Shown here piece by piece: positions 21,580 to 59,661 of a stretch of 64,000 nucleotides of DNA; the stretch's first letter is position 1; the number at the start of each line of letters is the position of its first letter. The notes beneath the pieces are model-generated. The model was not told where the DNA came from. It did not search any database and saw only the letters and a list, made by a program, of their open reading frames with translations. A program made the position numbers and the translations under genes. The stretch is from Eledone cirrhosa. Taxonomy: Eukaryota. The stretch is taken from positions 13,578,001 through 13,642,000 of the forward strand of contig OZ024757.1 in the NCBI GenBank assembly GCA_964016885.1, read 5' to 3'.

Positions 21580-24500
21580 TTCCAGCTAGCTACCCCACAC
21601 CCCTCCCTCCCGCCCCCACACGCCACCATACACACGCCACCATACTTAATACGTGGACCAATCATAAGCCAGAACCCCCCCCCCCCCCCCGCATCACCAC
21701 CATTATTATAAGCCAGAGCCCCCCCCCACGCATCACCATTATTATTATTATTACGCGGACCAAATCATAAGCCAGAGGCCTATACTATCGCTTGCCCGGT
21801 TGCCTTCGATATATGATGGATGGATGGATGGACGGACGGACTGCGGAATCCTGGAGAGTGGAAGGGAGAGAAAAATCTGGACGCCCAGAGCGAAAATGCC
21901 AAAGTTAAAGTCAAATTCACCTCGTGGACGAGAATGCGAGCACTCCTCTTTGTTTCGTCCGCGGATGGCTAACATAACCCTATCTCCTCCCGCCCCCCAC
22001 CACCCCCACCCTCCAAACGCAACCCAAAACTTCAGAGTTGGTACCATAAATGTAGGCACCCTAAAGGGTCGCGCTAACGAGGTTGTAGAAATGCTTGAAC
22101 GTAAGGAGGTCGATGTTTGTTGTATTGAAGAGACCAGGTGGAGGGGTGGGTCTGCTAGATTCATTGAGGGTAAAAAACGATGTTATAAGCTTTTCTGGGT
22201 GGGAAACGACGATGGGCTGGGTGGAGTAGGAATCATGGTAGCAGAAAAGTGGGCAGATAAGATAATAGACGTAAATAGAGTGAACGACAGAATAATTAAA
22301 ATAAGACTTGTCCTCAATAGAACTACGGTGACAGTAATATCTGCGTACGCACCCCAATCCGGACTGCCCGGCACTATAAAAGACAGATTCTATGAGACAC
22401 TGTTGCTAACTACCTCCCAAATATCTGACAGTGACTATATAATTATTGCAGGCGACCTAAATGGTCACGTTGGACAACATTGTGACGGCTACGACGAAAT
22501 CCATGGAGGCTATGGGTTTGGTACTAGAAATGAGGAAGGCTCCAGAATCCTGGAATACTGTGATGCAAATAACCTAACTATCTGTAACACTAACTTCAAA
22601 AAACGTGACAATCACCTGATTACCTATAGATCCGGGGAACACACAAGCCAGGTAGATTATATCCTTACCAGAAGACGTGACAGAGTGTCTGTTGTAAACA
22701 CTAAATCCCTCCCCCATGAAGAATGCACCTCCCAACATAGACTGATAATTAGCGACCTCATAGTCAGGACGAGACGTACCCGACAGCAGAAGAGGACTAT
22801 CCTCAGGAGGAAAATATGGAAACTAAAGGACCCCACAGCCAGAAATAAATTTCAAAGCATATTACTTGATGCTTTCGACAGTAAGGAAGAGCATCTAGAA
22901 TCGGACAATATAGAGGGACAGTGGAAATTTCTGAAAGCAAACCTGCTGTTGGCGACAGACGAAGTCTGTGGCTGGAGCAGGCCTGTAGGCAGGAGGAGAG
23001 TAACATGGTGGTGGAACAATAGGGTGGAGGGGTCAATTAAGGCCAAAAAGCAGGCTTGGAAAGTATGGCGGGATGGGGGAAGTAGAGTAGACTATCAAGT
23101 GGCCAGGAGGGAAGCTAGGAGAGAAGTGTACTTAGCAAGAAGGGAAGCTGAGGAAAGAAAGTTCAAGCATGTTCTACAACGCGATGACCAAAAACGTGAG
23201 GTGTTCAGGATTGCCAGGCAATGCGTCAAGGAAAACCGTGATATTGTCGGGGAGAAGTGTGTACTTAACGATGATGGCATACTTGCCATCACCGACACTG
23301 ATAAGAAGGTAGCTTGGAAGTGTCACTATGAAAGGCTACTAAATGAGGAGAATAAATGGGAGAAAGACAGTCTCCCCCATATCGACCCGATAGAGGGACC
23401 AGCAGTGTTAGTCGAGGGGAGTATAATAAGTAAGGCAATCAAGGATATGAAGACTGGTAAGGCGGCTGGGCCTTCGGAAATAGTTGCTGAGATGCTGAAG
23501 GCATCTGGCACGGTGGGACACACCATGGTCACCCGCATAGTTAACCAAGTCGTACAGAATGGGGTTGTTCCGAAGGACTGGCATAGCAGCATCATCGTTA
23601 ACTGTTATAAGGGTAAAGGAGACGCCCTAGATAGGAGTAACTATAGAGGCATTAAATTAATCGACCAGGTCATGAAGGTCACGGAAAAAGTAATAGCGCA
23701 ACTAATCAGAGAGAGAATTGATCTAGATGAAATGCAGTTCGGGTTTGTGTCAGGCAAAAGCACCACAGACGCTCTTTTCATAGTACGACAACTACAGGAG
23801 AAGTACCTAGCTAAAGGTAAACCCCTCTACTTAGCTTTTGTCGACCTGGAGAAAGCCTTCGACAGAGTCCCCCGCTCCATTATCTGGTGGGCTCTTAGAA
23901 AACTAGGCGTTGACGAATGGCTTGTGAGGGCTATACAAGCCATGTATAAAGAAACAGTCAGCAAGGTTAGAATTAACAACGAATATAGTGAAGAGTTTAG
24001 CGTAAAAGTTGGCGTCCATCAGGGCTCTGTTCTCAGCCCCCTACTATTTATTATTGCCCTTCAGGCTATAACAGAGGAGTTCAAGACAGGCTGCCCATGG
24101 GAACTCCTATACGCAGACGACCTGACACTCATAGCGGAATCAATGGCCGAGCTAGAGAAGAAATTCCAAACATGGAAGCACGGCCTAGAGTCAAAAGGAC
24201 TTAAAATTAACCTGGCTAAGACCAAAGTTCTAGTTTCTAGGAAAGAAAACAAGGCGGCGGTCCCTTCTGGGAAATGGTCGTGCTCGGTATGTAGGAAAGG
24301 CGTAGGTAGAAACTCCATCTTATGTCCTAAATGCAAAGTATGGGTGCATAAAAGATGTAGTGGGATCACAGGTAAGCTAACTAAGAACATAGACTTTACA
24401 TGTGGCCGGTGTTCTGGTGCAATAAGTAGCAGCAAGTGCCCACAAAATACTAGCTCTTTCAATTGCGCAGAGGGTTCTATAGAAATAGTGGACAGCTTCC

Positions 24501-25437
24501 GTTACCTGGGCGATAAAATCAGCAGTGGGGGAGGGTGCTCTGAAAGTACTGTAGCTAGAGTCAGAACTGGTTGGAAAAAGTTCAGAGAGCTTATACCACT
24601 ATTAGCTGCTAAAGGGTTCTCCCTAAAAATGAAAGGCAGGTTGTACGATGCCTGCATACGAACAGCAATGTTGCATGGTAGTGAGACCTGGGCATTGTGT
24701 GCAGAGGATATACGCAGACTAGAGAGGAACGAAGCTTGCATGCTCCGCTGGATGTGTAACAGTAATATACGTGAACGGCAAAGCATAAACGAACTAAGGA
24801 AAAAATTAGAGATAAGAGGGATCAGATGTTGTTTACTCGAGAGAAGGCTGCGTTGGTATGGACACGTGATGCGCATGAAAGTCGATAGCTGTATTACAAA
24901 GTGCAGGGCAATAAAGATAGACGGTAGCCACGGAATAGGCAGACCTAGAAAAACATGGGATGAGCTGATAAACTCCGACCTCACACCCTTACACCTCTCC
25001 AAGACAATGTCACTGGACCGTGACCTTTGGCGGTACTCAGTAACAGAGAAGACCCGCCTTGCCAGTAGGCATCTCTAACAAACTAAACCCCGTCCCGCCA
25101 CCACCCCCACCCCATCCACACCACCCCGTTCCATGTAAAGTTATGTTGGTGCCGCGCCATCCAGGCCGAAACAAACGAGATCGTGTAGGTGTCACGACAA
25201 AAAAACACACAGTCCACGCTGTAATGTGGCCGTGTAGGCAACACGGTAAAAACCTCCCAGACCCACACTGTAAATGTGGTTGGTGTTAGGAAGGGCATCC
25301 AACTGTAGAAAACCTGCCAGACAGTCCTATGCGAGCAAGACAATCACTCTTGCCTCAAGTGGGACTACCCCCGTCCAAACCCATGCAAGCGTGGAACACG
25401 GACGTTAAACGTTGATGATGATGATGATGATGATGAT
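21580..25437 (+). mobile_element. Full-length or near full-length RTE-clade LINE
   Basis: Single long EN-RT ORF, ~330-nt 3' UTR, (GAT)n tail; 5' boundary uncertain and no target-site duplication could be identified. Confidence 0.9.
21800..25078 (+). CDS. RTE LINE polyprotein: APE endonuclease, reverse transcriptase, internal PHD finger
   Basis: Uninterrupted 1092-codon frame; EN motifs GTINV, EETRW, SAYAP, GDLNGH, VDYIL, SQHR; RT motifs NYRGI, QFGF, FVDLEKAFD, GVHQGSVLSP, YADD, FRYLG; C-terminal HGSETW, RRLRWYGH, GRPRKTW. True start may be an ATG at 21824, 21896 or 21965. Confidence 0.95.
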   Translation: MPSIYDGWMDGRTDCGILESGRERKIWTPRAKMPKLKSNSPRGRECEHSSLFRPRMANITLSPPAPHHPHPPNATQNFRVGTINVGTLKGRANEVVEMLERKEVDVCCIEETRWRGGSARFIEGKKRCYKLFWVGNDDGLGGVGIMVAEKWADKIIDVNRVNDRIIKIRLVLNRTTVTVISAYAPQSGLPGTIKDRFYETLLLTTSQISDSDYIIIAGDLNGHVGQHCDGYDEIHGGYGFGTRNEEGSRILEYCDANNLTICNTNFKKRDNHLITYRSGEHTSQVDYILTRRRDRVSVVNTKSLPHEECTSQHRLIISDLIVRTRRTRQQKRTILRRKIWKLKDPTARNKFQSILLDAFDSKEEHLESDNIEGQWKFLKANLLLATDEVCGWSRPVGRRRVTWWWNNRVEGSIKAKKQAWKVWRDGGSRVDYQVARREARREVYLARREAEERKFKHVLQRDDQKREVFRIARQCVKENRDIVGEKCVLNDDGILAITDTDKKVAWKCHYERLLNEENKWEKDSLPHIDPIEGPAVLVEGSIISKAIKDMKTGKAAGPSEIVAEMLKASGTVGHTMVTRIVNQVVQNGVVPKDWHSSIIVNCYKGKGDALDRSNYRGIKLIDQVMKVTEKVIAQLIRERIDLDEMQFGFVSGKSTTDALFIVRQLQEKYLAKGKPLYLAFVDLEKAFDRVPRSIIWWALRKLGVDEWLVRAIQAMYKETVSKVRINNEYSEEFSVKVGVHQGSVLSPLLFIIALQAITEEFKTGCPWELLYADDLTLIAESMAELEKKFQTWKHGLESKGLKINLAKTKVLVSRKENKAAVPSGKWSCSVCRKGVGRNSILCPKCKVWVHKRCSGITGKLTKNIDFTCGRCSGAISSSKCPQNTSSFNCAEGSIEIVDSFRYLGDKISSGGGCSESTVARVRTGWKKFRELIPLLAAKGFSLKMKGRLYDACIRTAMLHGSETWALCAEDIRRLERNEACMLRWMCNSNIRERQSINELRKKLEIRGIRCCLLERRLRWYGHVMRMKVDSCITKCRAIKIDGSHGIGRPRKTWDELINSDLTPLHLSKTMSLDRDLWRYSVTEKTRLASRHL

Positions 25438-34431: not shown

Positions 34432-36237
34432 AATTTTCTTTTTATTTGCCACCAGGGCATCAAAAAGTGGGACAAGTACAATGGGGGGAGTTTACATAAC
34501 AAGGCGTCCTCAATAAGGAGGAGGCAATAACAAGATATAAAAATAAAATACAACATAACAAAATAAAATTTATAACAAAGTCCTCAATAGGGAGGAGGCG
34601 CCTTGGGGGGTCGCACACACCCCCGAAAAAAGTGTGCAACCCTTCTCCTCAGGAGCACAGAGAGGGGGTGCTCCCTTGATCTTTTATCTTCCTCACCTAT
34701 AGTCTGATGTAGAGTGAAGGCCCATTCACACAGGCCATTCTCGCCACTTTCACCCATCTTTCATAAAAACGGCTGGGGTGCAGCACCTCTCTCTCCATTC
34801 TGATCCTTCTTCCGAAATGATATCGGAAGAAATGGACTAGTTGTTGGCCAGAGAGAAAGGTGTCTGATCTCAGTCCTTTCAGACGCGTCCACCATACAAC
34901 CTCTTTCGCCATGGCTATTACGCACAGAAACACCGCCTCTCCTTCGTTTTTGAAGAGGGGAGGCGGCTTGATCGTTACAATAGACTCGGTGGTCAACCGG
35001 ATCGGTCCCACCCTTGACAGCAGTTGTTCGACATAGCCCCACAGATCGGCAATGCCCGAGCAGTGTACCAATGCGTGTGCAACGGTTTCCTCGTCGCACA
35101 CGCATCTGGGACAGATCTTTTTCGAGGGGTCCTTACCCGGACGCCCGTGTCTGTAGAGCCTTCCTCGAACGGGCAGAGCCCCTCGGTAGCACTGCCAGGC
35201 CAGGGACCTATGGAAGTTATCCATGGGTCCCGGGCTGAATGTCCTACCGAACAGGTTGGCCAGTTCGTCTTCCTCCATGCCTAGGGCTTCTCCGAGGGCG
35301 TCGTCGCACCTGCTAACCACCAGCACTCTATAGAATGACGAGGTGGATTCTCCACTGACAGACGGGTCCGCCTGCCAGAGAGCCGTGAGCGCCTGGACAC
35401 ACTCGGTGTGCCAGGCGCCCAGTTTTCTCGGTCTTTGCTTGACCCAGAATTGCAGCTCGGTGAGTGAGACGAGTCTGGGAAAGGCTCGCCTCACAAACGG
35501 AGCCCACACCGGTTGACCGGTGAGGAATACCTGGAGGTGCCGTAGCCTTAATGCGTGTTTACGTATCATTAGCCACGGCATCCCCAGCCCTCCTTTCGAA
35601 GGGTGTTGACAGCAGATGGATCTCCTCACCATAGGAGCCCGCTTCTTCCAAAGGAATTGGAAGAGTGCGCGCTCCATTTTGGCGAGCGTTTCCCTTGGGC
35701 AAGGCACAACGGTCAGGTGGTAGTAGATGACAGACGTTATATAAGTGTTCGCCACCTCCGCCCGACCTTTCAGGGACAGTTTGCACTCGGCCCACTTCTG
35801 GGTCAGTGCAAACACCCTGTTCGTTACCTCACCCCAGTTCTTCTCCACCTGGCCCTCCGTCCAGTGCCCGACGACGCCATCGGAGGGCATCGATCTGCCC
35901 CTCCACGTGCCGAGTTGCAGACCGATCGACTTGTCCCGGTTCAGCTTAGCCCCTATAAACCTTTCGTACTCCTCCAGTGAGGTGCCGATCGCCCCGATTT
36001 CCGAGGCCATCGACACCATTACTGTTACGTCATCGGCGTAGGCCGACACCGCTTTCCGCAATCCCGGTTCCAACGGGATGCCCTGCAACAACTCCAGCTT
36101 CCGCAGCAGTGGCTCTAGAGTCATTACATACAGAAGGGAGGAGAGAGGGCACCCTTGTCGGATGGACCGCGCAATTTTGAACGGCTCCAAGAGGTAGCCA
36201 TTCACCTTGACCCTAGAGCAGATGCGGCTGCTGTGCA
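34432..36237 (-). mobile_element. 5'-truncated L1/Tx1-clade LINE: RT C-terminal half and CCHC (zf-RVT-like) region, open frame 34697-~36235
   Basis: SIRQGCPLSSLLY, SAYADD, LSLKGR, GGLG, CPRC...ETVAHALVHC; the N-terminal part of the listed ORF is only microsatellite read-through. Confidence 0.9.
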
Positions 36238-36884
36238 TAGATAGGTAGATAGGTAGATAGATAGATAGGTAGATAGATACCGGGAGATAGGGGGACAGAG
36301 AGGAAGAGTAAGAGCCAGAGAGAGAGAGAGAGAGAGACTGGGAGAGAGAGAGACAGAGAGAGGAAGAGACAGACAGGCAAAGAGTGAGAGAGAAAAACAG
36401 ACAGAGAGACAAAGAGTGAGAGACAGAAAGACAGACAAAAAGAGTGAGAGAGAGTGAGAGAGAGAGAGAGAGAGAGAGTACTTTGATGTGATAGACATCT
36501 GGTAGAATTGTAATTCTTCCAGTGGGAATACCACTCCACTTCCACCACCTCCACTATACCATCAGACTGTTTTAACTGACACACACACATGTACACATAC
36601 ACACACACACACACATACACATACACATCTGTCTTGGAGACACATATCTGTCATTAAAAAAAACACACACACATGTACACATACACACATGGACACATAC
36701 ATACACACGTGTACACATGTACACATACATACACACATTTGTACACATACACATGTACACACACACACCCATACACCTGTCTTGAAAACACATAAACATA
36801 TACACACCACCACCACACCCATATATACATCTGTCATGAAGACATTTACACCCACATCCATGTACACCTGTCTTGGGGAGTATC

Positions 36885-49502: not shown

Positions 49503-49559
49503 CTTATTACTATATATATCATCATCATCATCATCATTTTACATCCGCTTTTCCCTGCT

Positions 49560-49597
<38 letters not shown>

Positions 49598-49875
49598 AGC
49601 AGGGAAAAGCGGATATATATATATATATATGAATTTGTTTTGCAAGGATTTTGATACAAAATTGTGTGTCGAAACAAATATTGTTGTAATAATATTGCCA
49701 GAAATAATAACAGATCTATGGAACTATGCAGATATAAAAGATACAGAAGCGAAAACCAACCAAACAATGGGTGTGTTCTGTTATTATTTCTGGCAATATT
49801 ATTACAACAATATGACCCTCCCCAAGTACAACAATATATATTTATATATATATATATATAAATAAATATATAAAG

Positions 49876-50112
49876 CCATGTAGTGTGACTATACTACTCA
49901 GTAACAGTCTCGTTGTTCCAAGTCCTGTGTCACACAGTTAATGTACCACACTTTCACAGATAGAACAAGTTACAAAAACTGTCCTTAATTTGGTGTATTT
50001 TTCCCCGTTACATGGCCAAAATAGGAGATACTGTGTACCCTGCTAATGGTATCTTAACAGGGCATACAGTGTCCCCTATTGTGGTATCTTAATAGGGTAC
50101 ACAGTGTGGATA
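49876..50112 (-). ncRNA. Box H/ACA scaRNA-like RNA, predicted guide for U1 snRNA psi6 (U109/SCARNA18-like function)
   Basis: Minus strand: H box ACAUUA, 3' hairpin GUGUGAC/GUCACAC, pocket strands CAGG and AGUAU complementary to U1 AUACU-UA-CCUG, 14 nt from pocket to ACA, CGAG (CAB-like) in apical loop. 5' boundary inferred from CCACACU/AGUGUGG stem. Confidence 0.8.
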
Positions 50113-51799: not shown

Positions 51800-52135
51800 G
51801 GAGGCACATGGCTTAGTGGTTAGAGCATTGGCTTTGCAATCGAAAGGTTGTGAGTTCAATTCTCAGACCAGGTGATGTGTTGTTTCCTTGAGCAAGACAC
51901 TTTATTTCACGTTGCTCCAGTTTACTCAGCTGTAGAAATGAGATTATAGGGACTGGGATCCCTATCATTCGTGGAGGTGCCATGGCAAAAAAGCACCCAG
52001 CACTCACTGTAAATGAGGTTGGTGTTAGGAAGGGCATCCAGCTGTAGAAATCAAGCCAGAATCAGTTCCCGTTCCACCCTTGCAAGCAGGGAAAAGTGGA
52101 CGTAAAATGAAATGATGATGATGATGATGATGATA
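51800..52135 (+). mobile_element. tRNA-derived SINE (family B) with RTE-type 3' tail
   Basis: A box tggcttagtgg, B box gagttcaattc, core ccttgagcaagacactttatttcac, tail ggttggtgttaggaagggcatcc...ggacgtaaaatg(gat)n. Confidence 0.88.
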
Positions 52136-52320
52136 TAGATATATATAGATAGATAGATAGATATTGTCTGGAACTAGCTGTTGAAATGGCAAGAGCTCAG
52201 CCGTCGGGTCCCATCTCTTTATAATATAACCATACTCTACTACCCCCAAGCATAGAGTACTCTGTTGAGTAATGGTCAAACCAGTTTCAAACTGATTCTA
52301 TCTTGATTTATACATTTATA

Positions 52321-52738
52321 GTGGAGTCTGTGCTGCTGTACGGGTCTGAGATTGGACACTGACCAAGAAACTCACTCAGATGGTGGATGGGTGCTACACG
52401 AGAATGCTGAGGATGGCTCTGAACATTAATCAGTATACACTGAGTTTGAAGAACTCAGAGCTGTACGGGAGCCTCCCAAAAGTCAGCTCGAGAGTAGCAC
52501 AGAGATGACTGGGGTTAGCTGGACATGCTCACTGACATCCAGAGTTGACATTGCACTCAGTGCTCCTGTGGGAGCTCCTACATGGACACACTGGAAGAGG
52601 AAGACCGAGGTTAATGTATGTTGATGTCCTAAGGATAGACACTGGTCTGTTGGAGACGCAGGACATGGCAATGATAATGAGGGACAGAGACCGCTGGAGA
52701 GAACTCGTCCATGGATCTCAGGGATTTTATCCGCCATA
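52321..52738 (+). pseudogene. Dead RTE/RTEX-like LINE C-terminal fragment (also 54178-54597, 56073-56491, 57969-58387)
   Basis: VESVLLYGSETWTLTK...DGCYTR.LR...ELYG.LP...LAGH...GRGRP...DRDRWR with two in-frame TGA stops. Confidence 0.85.
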
Positions 52739-52983
52739 GAGACATATATATATTTTTAAAGACAAAATTAATTGCATATTAAGTGATGAAACATGTTAAT
52801 GCTTGGAATAAAACCTTATTATATCTCTTATCCATGTTAATCATCCTTTTACCTGTTATATATATATATTCAGTTCAAGGATATAACAAACAGGTACAAA
52901 AAGTCTTATTAGTTTCATGCTTTTTATGGAAAAGGAGAAAGAAATAGCAGCCAAATCCCCCTCAAGTATATATATGTTAAAAG

Positions 52984-53150
52984 CAATGTAGCGTGACTAT
53001 ACTACTCAGTAACAGTCTTGTTGCTCCAAGTCCTGTGTCACACAGTTGATGTCCCACACTTTCACAGAGTACCAGCTACAAAACTGTCCTCAATATATTT
53101 GGTGTAGTGACCCCTGTAAAGCTGCTTACGCAGGGGTCATAGTGTGGGTT
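52984..53150 (-). ncRNA. H/ACA U1-psi6 guide-like RNA, tandem copy 1
   Basis: H box ACAUCA, same pocket (CAGG/AGUAU), ACA box, CCCACACU/AGUGUGGG stem. Confidence 0.72.
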
Positions 53151-53821
53151 GCTTGATTAAAAACAAACAAAAAAAGAAGAAAAAAAAGAAACATATTTTA
53201 AAAAATGTGTAAGATATATCCTCTCAGACAGTTTCTCTCTCAACACATCTATGCTCGGTCGTTCACGCACATTGACATTGCACATCCAACAGAGCATGCT
53301 TGCCTCATTTCTCTCCAGCAGTCGCATATCGCCATTTAATTATATATATATATTGTAATATAGTCTAAAATTATATATAATCACAATTCAATGTTTATAT
53401 ATATTGTAATATAGTCTAAAATTATATATATATATATATATAATCACCATTTAATGTCTATTTTCCATGCTTGCATGGATAGACAGGGTGTAATGTTATG
53501 CAGTTAGAAGGGCCAGGTAATGTTTTGCTCAAATGTTCCGTTTTTTCCCCCCTTAGTTTGCTGTATTAAATTACTGACATACCGAAGCCTAACATGTTTC
53601 AATCAGTAAAGCAATGAAGGAAATAAACTACCAATATTTTCCATGCCACTGCTTTCTTGAACTATATTTAATGTTACAGTAACACAACATATATATATAT
53701 TTTTTTTTCAAAGAATCGCTGTTCTTAAAATGCATGGGCCAATGACCTCCACACATCCCAATAACCACCCTCCCCTACCACCAGAAAACGTATAAATACC
53801 ACCATATCACAATGACAGTCA

Positions 53822-53871
53822 GCTTTCCTGATGATTTCCTTAGAATGAAACAGTTCTAGTCCTGTAGAAGC
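53822..53871 (+). ncRNA. Hammerhead-like motif, one per tandem unit (also 55691-55740, 57585-57634, 59325-59374)
   Basis: UUC-CUGAUGA-U-UUC-CUUA-GAA-U-GAAA-CAG-loop-CUG-UA-GAAG; intact core but weak stem II with U-U closing mismatch. Confidence 0.45.
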
Positions 53872-54122
53872 CATTTCTATATTTTTTATATATATATATA
53901 TATATATGAAAATGATAGAAGATATATACATATATATATATATAGAGATATATATAGATAGATAGATAGATAGATAGATATTGTCTGGAACTAGCTGTTG
54001 AAATGGCAAGAGCTCAGCCGTCGGGTCCCAACTCTTTATAATATAACCATACTCTACTACCCCCCAGCATAGAGTACTCTGTTGAGTAATGGTCAAACCA
54101 GTTTCAAACTGATTCTTTCTTG

Positions 54123-54172
<50 letters not shown>

Positions 54173-54845
54173 TTATAGTGGAGTCTGTGCTGCTGTACGG
54201 GTCTGAGACTTGGACACTGACCAAGAAACTCACTCAGATGGTGGATGGGTGCTACACGAGAGTGCTGAGGATGGCTCTGAACATTAATCAGTATACACTG
54301 AGTTTGAAGAACTCAGAGCTGTACGGGAGCCTCCCAAAAGTCAGCTCGAGAGTAGCACAGAGATGACTGGGGTTAGCTGGACATGCTCACTGACATCCAG
54401 AGTTGACATTGCACTCAGTGCTCCTGTGGGAGATCCTACATGGACACACTGGAAGAGGAAGACCGAGGTTAATGTATGTTGATGTCCTAAAGACAGACAC
54501 TGGTCTGCTGGAGACGCAGGACATGGCAGCGATAATGAGGGACAGAGACCGCTGGAGAGAACTCGTCCATGGATCTCTGGGATTTAATCCGCCATAGAGA
54601 CATATATATATTTTTAAAGACAAAATTAATTGCATATTAAGTGATGAAACATGTTAATGCTTGGAATAAAACCTTATTATATCTCTTATCCATGTTAAGC
54701 ATCCTTTTACCTGTTATATATATATATATATTCAGTTCAAGGATATAACAAACAGGTACAAAAAGTCTTATTAGTTTCATGCTTTTTATGGAAAAGGAGA
54801 AAGAAATAGCAGCCAAATCCCCCTCAAGTATATATATGTTAAAAG

Positions 54846-55012
54846 CAATGTAGTGTGACTATACTACTCAGTAACAGTCTTGTTGCTCCAAGTCCTGTGT
54901 CACACAATTGATGTCCCACACTTTCACAGAGTACCAGCTACAAAACTGTCCTCAATATATTTGGTGTAGTGATCCCTGTAAAGCTGCTTACGCAGGGGTC
55001 ATAGTGTGGGTT
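54846..55012 (-). ncRNA. H/ACA U1-psi6 guide-like RNA, tandem copy 2
   Basis: As copy 1. Confidence 0.72.
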
Positions 55013-55818
55013 GCTTGATTAAAAACAAACAAAAAAAGAAAAAAAAAGAAACATATTTTAAAAAATGTGTAAAATATATCCTCTCAGACACAGTTTCTCT
55101 CTCAACACATCTATGCTCGGTCGTTCACGCACATTGACATTGCACATCCAACAGAGCATGCTTGCCTCATTTCTCTCCAGCCGTCACATATCGCCATTTA
55201 ATTATATATATATATTGTAATATAGTCTAAAATTATATATAATCACAATTCAATGTTTATATATATTGTAATATAGTCTAAAATTATATATATATATATA
55301 TATATAATCACCATTTAATGTCTATTTTCCATGCTTGCATGGATAGACGGTGTAATGTTATGCAGTTAGAAGGGCCAGGTAATGTTTTGCTCAAATGTTC
55401 CGTTTCCCCCTCCCCCCCCCCCTTAGTTTGCTGTATTAAATTACTGACATACCGAAGCCTAACATGTTTCAATCAGTAAAGCAATGAAGGAAATAAACTA
55501 CCAATATTTTCCATGCCACTGCTTTCTTGAACTATATTTAATGTTACAGTAACACAATATATATATATTTATTTTTTCAAAGAATCGCTGTTCTTAAAAT
55601 GCATGGGCCAATGACCTCCACACATCCCAATAACCACCCTCCCCTACCACCAGAAAACGTATAAATACCACCATATCACAATGACAGTCAGCTTTCCTGA
55701 TGATTTCCTTAGAATGAAACAGTTCTAGTCCTGTAGAAGCCATTTCTATATTTTTTATATATATATATATATGAAAATGATAGAAGATATATACATATAT
55801 ATATATAGAGAGATATAT

Positions 55819-55849
<31 letters not shown>

Positions 55850-56737
55850 TTGTCTGGAACTAGCTGTTGAAATGGCAAGAGCTCAGCCGTCGGGTCCCAA
55901 CTCTTTATAATATAACCATACTCTACTACCCCCCAGCATAGAGTACTCTGTTGAGTAATGGTCAAACCAGTTTCAAACTGATTCTATCTTGATTTATATA
56001 TATATATATATATATAAATATGAAATATCGTTTCATTTTTTCCGTTTATATATATATATATATATATATATAGTGGAGTCTGTGCTGCTGTACGGGTCTG
56101 AGATTGGACACTGACCAAGAAACTCACTCAGATGGTGGATGGGTGCTACACGAGAGTGCTGAGGATGGCTCTGAACATTAATCAGTATACACTGAGTTTG
56201 AAGAACTCAGAGCTGTACGGGAGCCTCCCAAAAGTCAGCTCGAGAGTAGCACAGAGATGACTGGGGTTAGCTGGACATGCTCACTGACATCCAGAGTTGA
56301 CATTGCAGTCAGTGCTCCTGTGGGAGCTCCTACATGGACACACTGGAAGAGGAAGACCGAGGTTAATGTATGTTGATGTCCTAAAGACAGACACTGGTCT
56401 GCTGGGGACGCAGGACATGGCAGCGATAATGAGGGACAGAGACCGCTGGAGAGAACTCGTCCATGGATCTCAGGGATTTAATCCGCCATAGAGACATATA
56501 TATATTTTTAAAGACAAAATTAATTGCATATTAAGTGATGAAACATGTTAATGCTTGGAATAAAACCTTATTATATCTCTTATCCATGTTAATCATCCTT
56601 TTACCTGTTATATATATATATATTCAGTTCAAGGATATAACAAACAGGTACAAAAAGTCTTATTAGTTTCATGCTTTTTATGGAAAAGGAGAAAGAAATA
56701 GCAGCCAAATCCCCCTCAAGTATATATATGTTAAAAG

Positions 56738-56904
56738 CAATGTAGTGTGACTATACTACTCAGTAACAGTCTTGTTGCTCCAAGTCCTGTGTCACACAAT
56801 TGATGTCCCACACTTTCACAGAGTACCAGCTACAAAACTGTCCTCAATATATTTGGTGTAGTGATCCCTGTAAAGCTGCTTACGCAGGGGTCATAGTGTG
56901 GGTT
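56738..56904 (-). ncRNA. H/ACA U1-psi6 guide-like RNA, tandem copy 3
   Basis: As copy 1. Confidence 0.72.
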
Positions 56905-57712
56905 GCTTGATTAAAAACAAACAAAAAAAGAAAAAAAAAGAAACATATTTAAAAAAATGTGTAAGATATATCCTCTCAGACACAGTTTCTCTCTCAACAC
57001 ATCTATGCTCGGTCGTTCACGCACATTGACATTGCACATCCAACAGAGCATGCTTGCCTCATTTCTCTCCAGCCGTCACATATCGCCATTTAATTATATA
57101 TATATATTGTAATATAGTCTAAAATTATATATAATCACAATTCAATGTTTATATATATTGTAATATAGTCTAAAATTATATATATATATATATATATAAT
57201 CACCATTTAATGTCTATTTTCCATGCTTGCATGGATAGACGGTGTAATGTTATGCAGTTAGAAGGGCCAGGTAATGTTTTGCTCAAATGTTCCGTTTCCC
57301 CCCCCCCCCCCCCCCCTTAGTTTGCTGTATTAAATTACTGACATACCGAAGCCTAACATGTTTCAATCAGTAAAGCAATGAAGGAAATAAACTACCAATA
57401 TTTTCCATGCCACTGCTTTCTTGAACTATATTTAATGTTACAGTAACACAATATATATTTTTTTTTTTTTTCAAAGAATCGCTGTTCTTAAAATGCATGG
57501 GCTAATGACCTCCACACATCCCAATAACCACCCTCCCCTACCACCAGAAAACGTATAAATACCACCATATCACAATGACAGTCAGCTTTCCTGATGATTT
57601 CCTTAGAATGAAACAGTTCTAGTCCTGTAGAAGCCATTTCTATATTTTTTATATATATATATATATGAAAATGATAGAAGATATATACATATATATATAT
57701 ATAGAGATATAT

Positions 57713-57743
<31 letters not shown>

Positions 57744-57937
57744 TTGTCTGGAACTAGCTGTTGAAATGGCAAGAGCTCAGCCGTCGGGTCCCAACTCTTT
57801 ATAATATAACCATACTCTACTACCCCCCAGCATAGAGTACTCTGTTGAGTAATGGTCAAACCAGTTTCAAACTGATTCTATCTTGATTTATATATATATA
57901 TATATATATAAATATGAAATATCGTTTCATTTTTTCC

Positions 57938-57971
<34 letters not shown>

Positions 57972-58633
57972 GAGTCTGTGCTGCTGTACGGGTCTGAGAT
58001 TGGACACTGACCAAGAAACTCACTCAGATGGTGGATGGGTGCTACACGAGAGTGCTGAGGATGGCTCTGAACATTAATCAGTATACACTGAGTTTGAAGA
58101 ACTCAGAGCTGTACGGGAGCCTCCCAAAAGTCAGCTCGAGAGTAGCACAGAGATGACTGGGGTTAGCTGGACATGCTCACTGACATCCAGAGTTGACATT
58201 GCAGTCAGTGCTCCTGTGGGAGCTCCTACATGGACACACTGGAAGAGGAAGACCGAGGTTAATGTATGTTGATGTCCTAAAGACAGACACTGGTCTGTTG
58301 GAGACGCAGGACATGGTAATGATAATGAGGGACAGAGACCGCTGGAAAGAACTCGTCCATGGATCTCAGGGATTTTATCCGCCATGGAGACATATATATA
58401 TTTTTCAAGACAAAATTAATTGCATATTAAGTGATGAAACATGTTAATGCTTGGAATAAAACCTTATTATATCTCTTATCCATGTTAATCATCCTTTTAC
58501 CTGTTATATATATATATATTCAGTTCAAGGATATAACAAACAGGTACAAAAAGTCTTATTAGTTTCATGCTTTTTATGGAAAAGGAGAAAGAAATAGCAG
58601 CCAAATACCCCTCAAGTATATATATGTTAAAAG

Positions 58634-58800
58634 CAATGTAGTGTGACTATACTACTCAGTAACAGTCTTGTTGCTCCAAGTCCTGTGTCACACAATTGAT
58701 GTCCCACACTTTCACAGAGTACCAGCTACAAAACTGTCCTCAATATATTTGGTGTAGTGACCCCTGTAAAGTTGCTTACGCAGGGGTCATAGTGTGGGTT
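58634..58800 (-). ncRNA. H/ACA U1-psi6 guide-like RNA, tandem copy 4
   Basis: As copy 1. Confidence 0.72.
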
Positions 58801-59661
58801 GCTTGATTAAAAACAAACAAAAAAAAAAAAAAGAAACATATTTTTAATGTCTATATATATATTGTAATATAGTCTAAAATTATATATAATCACAATTCAA
58901 TGTTTATATATATTGTAATATAGTCTAAAATTATATATATATATATAATCACCATTTAATGTCTATTTTCCATGCTTGCATGGATAGACAGGGTGTAATG
59001 TTATGCGATTAGAAGGGCCAGGTAATGTTTTGCTCAAATGTTCCCCCCCCCCCCCTTAGTTTGCTGTATTAAATTACTGACATACCGAAGCCTAACATGT
59101 TTCAATCAGTAAAGCAACGAAGGAAATAAACTACCAATATTTTCCATGCCACTGCTTTCTTGAACTATATTTAATGTTACAGTAACACAATATATATATA
59201 TATATTTTTTTAAAAGAATCGCTGTTCTTAAAATGCATGGGCCAATGACCTCTAGCCATCCCAATAACCAACTTCCCCTACCACCAGAAAACTTATAAAT
59301 AACACCATATCACAATGACAGTCAGCTTTCCTGATGATTTCCTTAGAATGAAACAGTTGTAGTCCTGTAGAAGCCATTTCTATATTTTTATATATATATA
59401 TATATATATATGAAAATGATAGAAGTTTAACTGTATGGCAGAAAATCCTTATAATACCTACACTACTTTTCTTAAGTATAGAAATAATGGTCTTACTGGT
59501 CTTAACTAGTAAGATCGTATATATAGATATCTAGTTGACAGCCAAGAGAAAAGAGTACTCAATACCAAAGTAGAGTTTAAATATTCATTTTATTATGGCT
59601 AAATAGTGATTCCTGTTACTTTGGAGTTTCACAGAAACGCTATTTAGACTTAATAAAATGA

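Follow-up and report, generated by a model that had tools for sequence, protein, structure and literature searches.

A predicted two-hairpin box H/ACA RNA in five copies within an IMP3 intron of Eledone cirrhosa, a likely guide for U1 pseudouridine 6

Introduction

Pseudouridines 5 and 6 of U1 snRNA lie in the segment that pairs with splice sites and are reported to stabilise the U1/splice-site duplex (PMC7960923), and for position 6 dedicated guides have been described in human (PMC7960923) and in fly (PMC3884663). In human, pseudouridine 6 is assigned to U109/SCARNA18 (PMC7960923), an H/ACA RNA that is intronic, as is predicted for the element described here. The U109 family was multiplied by retroposition and segmental duplication, and U109B is hosted by UCHL5 (PMC1687206), whereas the host of the Eledone element is IMP3. 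Human ACA47/SCARNA16, another H/ACA RNA, also guides modification near the start of U1, at position 5 (PMC7960923). The Drosophila RNA scaRNA:PsiU1-6 (pugU1-6) is an intronic H/ACA RNA that modifies U1 position 6 in an oocyte-nucleus extract; WDR79 binding, Cajal-body location and a 28S target in yeast are proven for the fly RNA only (PMC3884663). pugU1-6 and the Eledone element were compared by description.

Several H/ACA units can share an intron in Drosophila (PMC3089462), as is predicted for the IMP3 intron, and mammalian introns that hold two snoRNAs can give rise to sno-lncRNAs such as human SLERT (PMC11028025). In contrast to the Drosophila clusters and SLERT, five copies of one predicted snRNA guide are found here, at intervals of 1.9-3.0 kb within an intron of 136 kb. 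Among molluscs, scaRNA-like loci of the giant squid genome were annotated by Rfam score only (PMC6962438). Searches of the openly accessible literature brought up neither a mollusc guide for U1 pseudouridine 6 nor a scaRNA in an IMP3 intron.

The DNA analysed (the window) is a stretch of 64,000 nt from the cephalopod Eledone cirrhosa; the SINE types and the 2,876-nt 18S of the genome look like those of an octopod. The window contains five copies of a two-hairpin unit of H/ACA type; with a probability of roughly three in four, the unit is a real H/ACA RNA with the guiding of U1 pseudouridine 6 as its predicted function. An H/ACA RNA with this target had been proposed in the original prediction, and the proposal held up on a unique best target, a 5' hairpin, similarity confined to the predicted RNA, a small number of copies and a sense orientation within an intron of IMP3. 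The function is already known in human and fly, and no new mechanism is involved; the only unusual trait is the presence of five copies within one intron.

Anatomy of the predicted RNA

Every motif quoted in the original prediction was found on the minus strand at 49945-49876, in its place and as written, but together they make up just the 3' half of a 123-nt unit, copy c0 (Table 1). A 5' hairpin, unremarked until now, completes the hairpin-hinge-hairpin-tail architecture of c0. The upper stem of the 3' hairpin is present, but the 4 bp first drawn were too few, as it extends over 10 bp with one bulge; the CGAG expected in the apical loop does lie there. In all five copies the hinge carries an H box of the form ANANNA with a variable fifth base, and an ACA box is likewise present in five of five, with similarity dropping a few nucleotides behind it, where the RNA is predicted to end. 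The fold of two hairpins with hinge and tail, the H box and the bipartite pocket that characterise a box H/ACA guide RNA are all in place.

Table 1. Coordinates of the predicted H/ACA RNA copies, their parts and the surrounding host gene (positions in the window unless marked as contig)
Feature	Position	Strand	Remark
Window, within second coding intron of IMP3 (135,930 nt)	1-64000	-	exons 2 and 3 outside window
IMP3 exon 2	contig 13712893-13712786	-	
IMP3 exon 3	contig 13576855-13576781	-	
Copy c0, predicted full box H/ACA RNA, 123 nt	49876-49998	-	hairpin-hinge-hairpin-tail; ends predicted
c0 5' hairpin	49946-49998	-	5-6 bp lower stem, internal loop, ~9 bp upper stem
c0 H box (ANANNA)	49939-49944	-	fifth base variable in array copies, three A kept
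c0 3' hairpin	49883-49935	-	7-bp lower stem, pocket, 10-bp upper stem, 7-nt loop
c0 lower stem of 3' hairpin	49935-49929 / 49889-49883	-	7 bp
c0 left pocket arm	49924-49928	-	4 Watson-Crick pairs to U1 C8-G11
c0 right pocket arm	49890-49895	-	5 Watson-Crick pairs to U1 A1-U5; starts 14 nt before ACA
c0 apical loop of 3' hairpin	49907-49913	-	CAB-like CGAG; CAAG in four array copies
c0 ACA box	49879-49881	-	3 nt ahead of predicted 3' end 49876
Recent tandem array	52126-59425		period 1.86-1.90 kb, units ~97-98% alike
Copy c1, 124 nt, array type	52984-53107	-	a U-A pair of the lower stem is U-G
Copy c2, 124 nt, array type	54846-54969	-	
Copy c3, 124 nt, array type	56738-56861	-	
Copy c4, 124 nt, array type	58634-58757	-	

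When constrained to the two-hairpin form, the fold lies 1.2 kcal (c0) and 0.5 kcal (c2) from the minimum-energy fold, and the 3' hairpin with its pocket open lies 0.2-0.5 kcal above a different minimum. Folding stability was not significant, with z -1.39 for 70 nt and z +0.31 for 165 nt. In the 3' hairpin, 17 of 17 pairs hold in three distinct copies, and both stem changes are one-sided and of the wobble type. No compensatory double change was found in the 3' hairpin among these three distinct rows and two one-sided changes, so that covariation evidence is thin. The differences between copies spare the 3' pocket and the boxes, except for the fifth base of the H box, and the 3' stems are retained.

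The consensus of the CAB box is ugAG, of which G4 is essential (PMC4041459). The 3' loop reads CGAG in one of the five copies and CAAG in the other four, with AG in all of them, an AG in a 7-nt loop being common by chance; in the 5' apical region the array type has GUAG and c0 has GUAA. As four of the five copies have CAAG in place of CGAG, the label of scaRNA given in the original prediction becomes weaker. The predicted target, U1, is a Pol II spliceosomal snRNA, as for scaRNAs. If the guide is real, targeting to the Cajal body through the loop AG is plausible and somewhat favoured.

Pairing with U1 and other RNAs

A search of the Eledone cirrhosa genome gave 42 matches to U1, six of which were read, and the U1 5' end assumed in the original prediction is the start of the genome's own U1 in all six. 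The 3' pocket pairs with this U1 through 5+4 Watson-Crick pairs and leaves U6 and A7 unpaired, 14 nt from the ACA box, just as had been proposed. By the spacing rule for H/ACA RNAs, the target uridine stands 14-16 nt from the box. The pocket was compared with 2,124 uridines in nine of the genome's own RNAs (U1, U2, U3, U4, U5, U6, 5.8S, 18S and 28S). U6 of U1 was the sole site with nine Watson-Crick pairs; the next best had seven, and no rRNA site exceeded seven. Since the minimum pairing of an H/ACA guide is 8 bp (PMC6049503), the 9 bp found count in favour of guiding at U1 U6. In the canonical register for the neighbouring U5, the 3' pocket forms 0 pairs with U1. Guides with two targets have precedents (PMC6298559, PMC8763049), the latter making no mention of U1; dual guiding of U5 and U6 after the manner of PMC8763049 would need three unpaired bases and have 4+4 pairs only, and is not favoured.

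For the 5' pocket, no credible target was found among the same nine RNAs. With a stable upper stem, the best 5'-pocket site common to both copy types has nine pairs, five of them Watson-Crick. Both arms of the 5' hairpin contain stretches that are invariant, and 8 nt of the left arm can pair with U2 past U40 in both copy types. U40 of U2 was rejected as a target of this pocket, for its register needs an unstable upper stem, at +4.9 to +5.6 kcal, and was equalled by 41 of 200 shuffles. The invariant right arm (49946-49957 and the array equivalents) can form a duplex of 11-12 bp, including 3 G-U, with nucleotides 4-15 of the genome's own U3, which is the partner RNA of the IMP3 protein encoded by the host gene. 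As a target U3 was discarded, because the duplex opens the lower stem and presents no uridine in the pocket, and because the 3' pocket offers U12 of U3 only 5+1 pairs. The duplex was found post hoc and is likely due to chance. The 5' hairpin is probably structural, or it has a target outside the RNAs scanned.

To estimate how often such a match arises by chance, a descriptor was used that requires an H box, a lower stem, a pocket, an upper stem, an ACA at 14-16 nt and at least nine Watson-Crick pairs with any of 199 uridines in the genome's own U1, U2, U4, U5 and U6. In 488 kb of real sequence (the window and 18 flanking loci, both strands) it found 318 structural sites, five of which passed; these were the five element copies, all at U1 U6. 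In 94 Markov-resampled copies of the window, 35 matches were obtained at 32 places, 0 of them at U1 U6. By chance, hairpins that resemble a guide for one or another snRNA uridine are therefore common, at 0.34 per window, while one for U1 U6 is rare. Given this rate and the very large number of windows scanned, independent support is still required.

No Rfam family reached its gathering score in the window, the best match on a 131-nt query with the element had 14.9 bits (E 4.4), and 140 kb of the 180-kb flank gave one weak tRNA and nothing else. RF01233 snoU109, with a threshold of 43 bits, produced no match at E<=10 on the element and 0 matches genome-wide, where 43 of 406,006 candidates were scored. 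The claim that the element is the equivalent of U109 in this genome thus stands for the predicted function and fails for a match to the Rfam model. At the sequence level no match to U109 is detectable; the two RNAs may or may not be homologous.

Copies, array and host gene

The original prediction concerned a single copy; four more, and the host gene, had gone unremarked. These four lie in a recent tandem array. Each of its units is built largely from pieces of repeats and carries a single copy of the RNA, and the units are young, differing by 18-28 substitutions per 1.9-kb pair. A DNA search of the 3.0-Gb genome gave five matches, all inside the 64-kb window, and an exact gapped pattern gave five genome-wide against one for a control pattern, the paralogue search being by DNA similarity and exact pattern only. 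In metagenome contigs the strict pattern found 0 loci. Nine metagenome loci retrieved by a relaxed pattern were rejected as homologues: their number is about that expected by chance, and the lower stem, judged by eye, never extends beyond the pattern's own 3 pairs.

Similarity between c0 and the array copies sets in with the first base of the stem and tapers off just past ACA+3. Aligned with c2, c0 is identical at 45/58 positions of the 5' hairpin, 7/9 of the hinge and 57/60 of the 3' hairpin plus tail; the flanks, with 31/63 upstream and 21/41 downstream, reach about 50%. Over 3.7 kb around c0 compared with one array unit, no non-repeat sequence is shared other than the element and the border of the array itself. 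The RNA may have been preserved by selection as the flanks diverged, or the mature RNA may have been copied and inserted; either way, a unit with these ends is implied. Because the U109 family was spread by retroposition and duplication and the snRNA genes of this genome are themselves in tandem, local amplification is unremarkable.

The possibility that the segment is a fragment of a dispersed, high-copy transposon, raised in the original prediction, was checked and does not apply: the five matches sit at one locus, and DNA depth on the element is 11-24 against 10^5-10^6 on adjacent repeats, as read from the contigs of a single sample with two DNA-type runs, possibly the source of the assembly. 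Array-type contigs are deeper than those of c0 by 2.2-2.3 fold (24.7 vs 11.4 and 15.9 vs 6.86) where 3-4 fold would be expected, which favours several array copies without fixing their number at four.

The host was recognised from open reading frames. The window and 180 kb of flank contain 246 unmasked open frames, of which 113 of 126 on the minus strand and 100 of 120 on the plus strand were submitted to Pfam; those left out were inside LINE ORFs, already scanned or of low complexity. Three minus-strand frames match S4-family models, and the plus strand gave one weak DUF match. The S4 matches pointed to RPS9 as the host, a reading overturned by the match to IMP3, in which the host exons align with solved IMP3 chains at E 1.5e-14 and 5.7e-5. 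The gene has seven coding exons over ~176 kb (contig 13550900-13726802) with GT-AG borders and an open frame across the exons, and a query with exon 4 matches this locus only. The human IMP3 gene is intronless.

Coding intron 2 of IMP3 contains all five copies in sense orientation, 51-76 kb from its known splice sites. As far as the known coding exons go, this location fits an intron-encoded sno/scaRNA. Furthermore, genes for ribosome biogenesis are common hosts of snoRNAs (PMC3089462), and IMP3, the gene of a U3 snoRNP protein, is typical of the host class of intronic H/ACA RNAs. The U1 and U2 genes have a common short motif ~55 nt upstream; inspected by eye, it is absent at that place before the copies, and an independent promoter of the snRNA type was accordingly set aside. 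At 53129-53165 and its counterparts in the array units, a U-rich tract is followed by an AG (a 3' site by eye) and, after ~22 nt, by a GTAAG that resembles a strong 5' splice site; these signals lie ~20 nt before each array copy. They possibly delimit a micro-exon, which would give each copy its own intron.

Proposed pathway and alternative explanations

By analogy with the known H/ACA pathway, the RNA would be transcribed together with the IMP3 pre-mRNA. Dyskerin, Nop10, Nhp2 and Gar1 would bind its H and ACA boxes, and the RNA, once freed from the intron after splicing, would be trimmed to 3 nt behind ACA. It would then form a three-way junction with U1 in which U6 and A7 are unpaired, and U6, in the segment that pairs with 5' splice sites, would be isomerised. 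Five copies in one 136-kb intron and far from its splice sites are a poor fit to a scheme of one trimmed RNA per intron. As the five H/ACA units lie together between the known coding exons 2 and 3, trimming from the ends would halt at the outermost copies. It is quite unlikely, though conceivable on this layout, that trimming from both intron ends leaves an 8.9-kb sno-lncRNA with H/ACA ends (58757 to 49876) and five pockets for the U1 5' end, similar to SLERT. Such a product would be an invertebrate SLERT-like RNA aimed at the spliceosome and tied to the expression of IMP3, a U3 snoRNP gene.

The reading of the element as a guide for U1 U6 has to be weighed against its being a chance look-alike, namely a short intronic segment, duplicated locally (copied recently or left over from a rare mobile element), that does not give rise to an RNA. 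By the mask used, ~80% of the window is repeat or low-complexity, chance guides to one or another snRNA uridine number 0.34 per window, the folding z is not significant, and flanks with ~50% identity may be unrelated, in which case the island of similarity could be a young insertion and not a selected remnant. But the limits of the copied segment, from the first stem to just behind ACA+3, coincide with the ends of the predicted RNA, and snoRNA retroposition itself yields exact copies of a mature RNA (PMC1687206). Differences that spare the boxes and the 3' pocket and keep the 3' stems, a total of five copies at one locus with a depth far below that of the adjacent repeats, and the sense strand of a snoRNP gene also speak for an RNA, so that a look-alike is unlikely.

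A real H/ACA RNA could also work on another target (rRNA, U2, U3 or a minor snRNA) through either pocket, the match to U1 being secondary. The invariant stretches on both arms of the 5' hairpin and the pairing of these arms with U2 and U3 would agree with this, and in yeast a fragment of 28S is a further substrate of the fly pugU1-6 (PMC3884663). It is very unlikely nonetheless, given the costly stem and the shuffles in the U2 register, the opened lower stem and empty pocket in the U3 duplex, and the ceiling of seven Watson-Crick pairs for rRNA in the 3' pocket. Highly improbable is a genuine family of U1 U6 guides in which c0, or else the array, is a dead duplicate. In c0 there is a mismatch at the base of the 5' lower stem, the best 5' pocket is 17 nt from the H box compared with 14 nt in the array type, and the 5' loop is without AG, whereas the copies of the young array are untried by time; yet the 3' hairpin, its pocket and both boxes are intact in five of five copies, and it is c0 that has the better CAB-like motif.

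Should the five copies indeed encode guides for U1 U6, RNA-guided modification of U1 position 6 would extend from human and fly to a cephalopod, and the sequence, being missed by Rfam models, would be overlooked in annotation based on them, as for example in the giant squid (PMC6962438). The RNA would further serve as a starting point for learning if the Eledone RNA, U109 and pugU1-6 have a common or separate origin, and as a handle on the role of the U1 mark in the choice of 5' splice sites. Five copies in one intron are a natural experiment on the release of intronic H/ACA RNAs from clusters.

Other features of the window and genome

Just upstream of c0, at 50031-50104, two related hairpins form a direct repeat with a shared 11-nt core, and the block is closed overall by an inverted repeat. 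The core occurs here only within the 244 kb searched, and the block is without a match elsewhere in the genome. At 49539-49618, a near-perfect inverted repeat surrounds a (TA)n run, with two repeat ends arranged head to head; the many sub-threshold matches to Rfam miRNA models at this place were dismissed as an artefact of the repeats. Two LINE-type open reading frames were noted in the window, one on the plus strand (21668-25078; 1136 aa) with endonuclease, reverse transcriptase and a PHD finger, and one on the minus strand (34697-36553; 618 aa) with reverse transcriptase and zf-RVT. The U1, U2, U6, U5, U4 and U3 genes (contigs C2, C3, C19, C9, C1 and C7) are arranged in tandem arrays or clusters with a spacing of ~0.9-7 kb. 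The rRNAs of this genome are strongly expanded, with an 18S of 2,876 nt and a 28S of ~5 kb.
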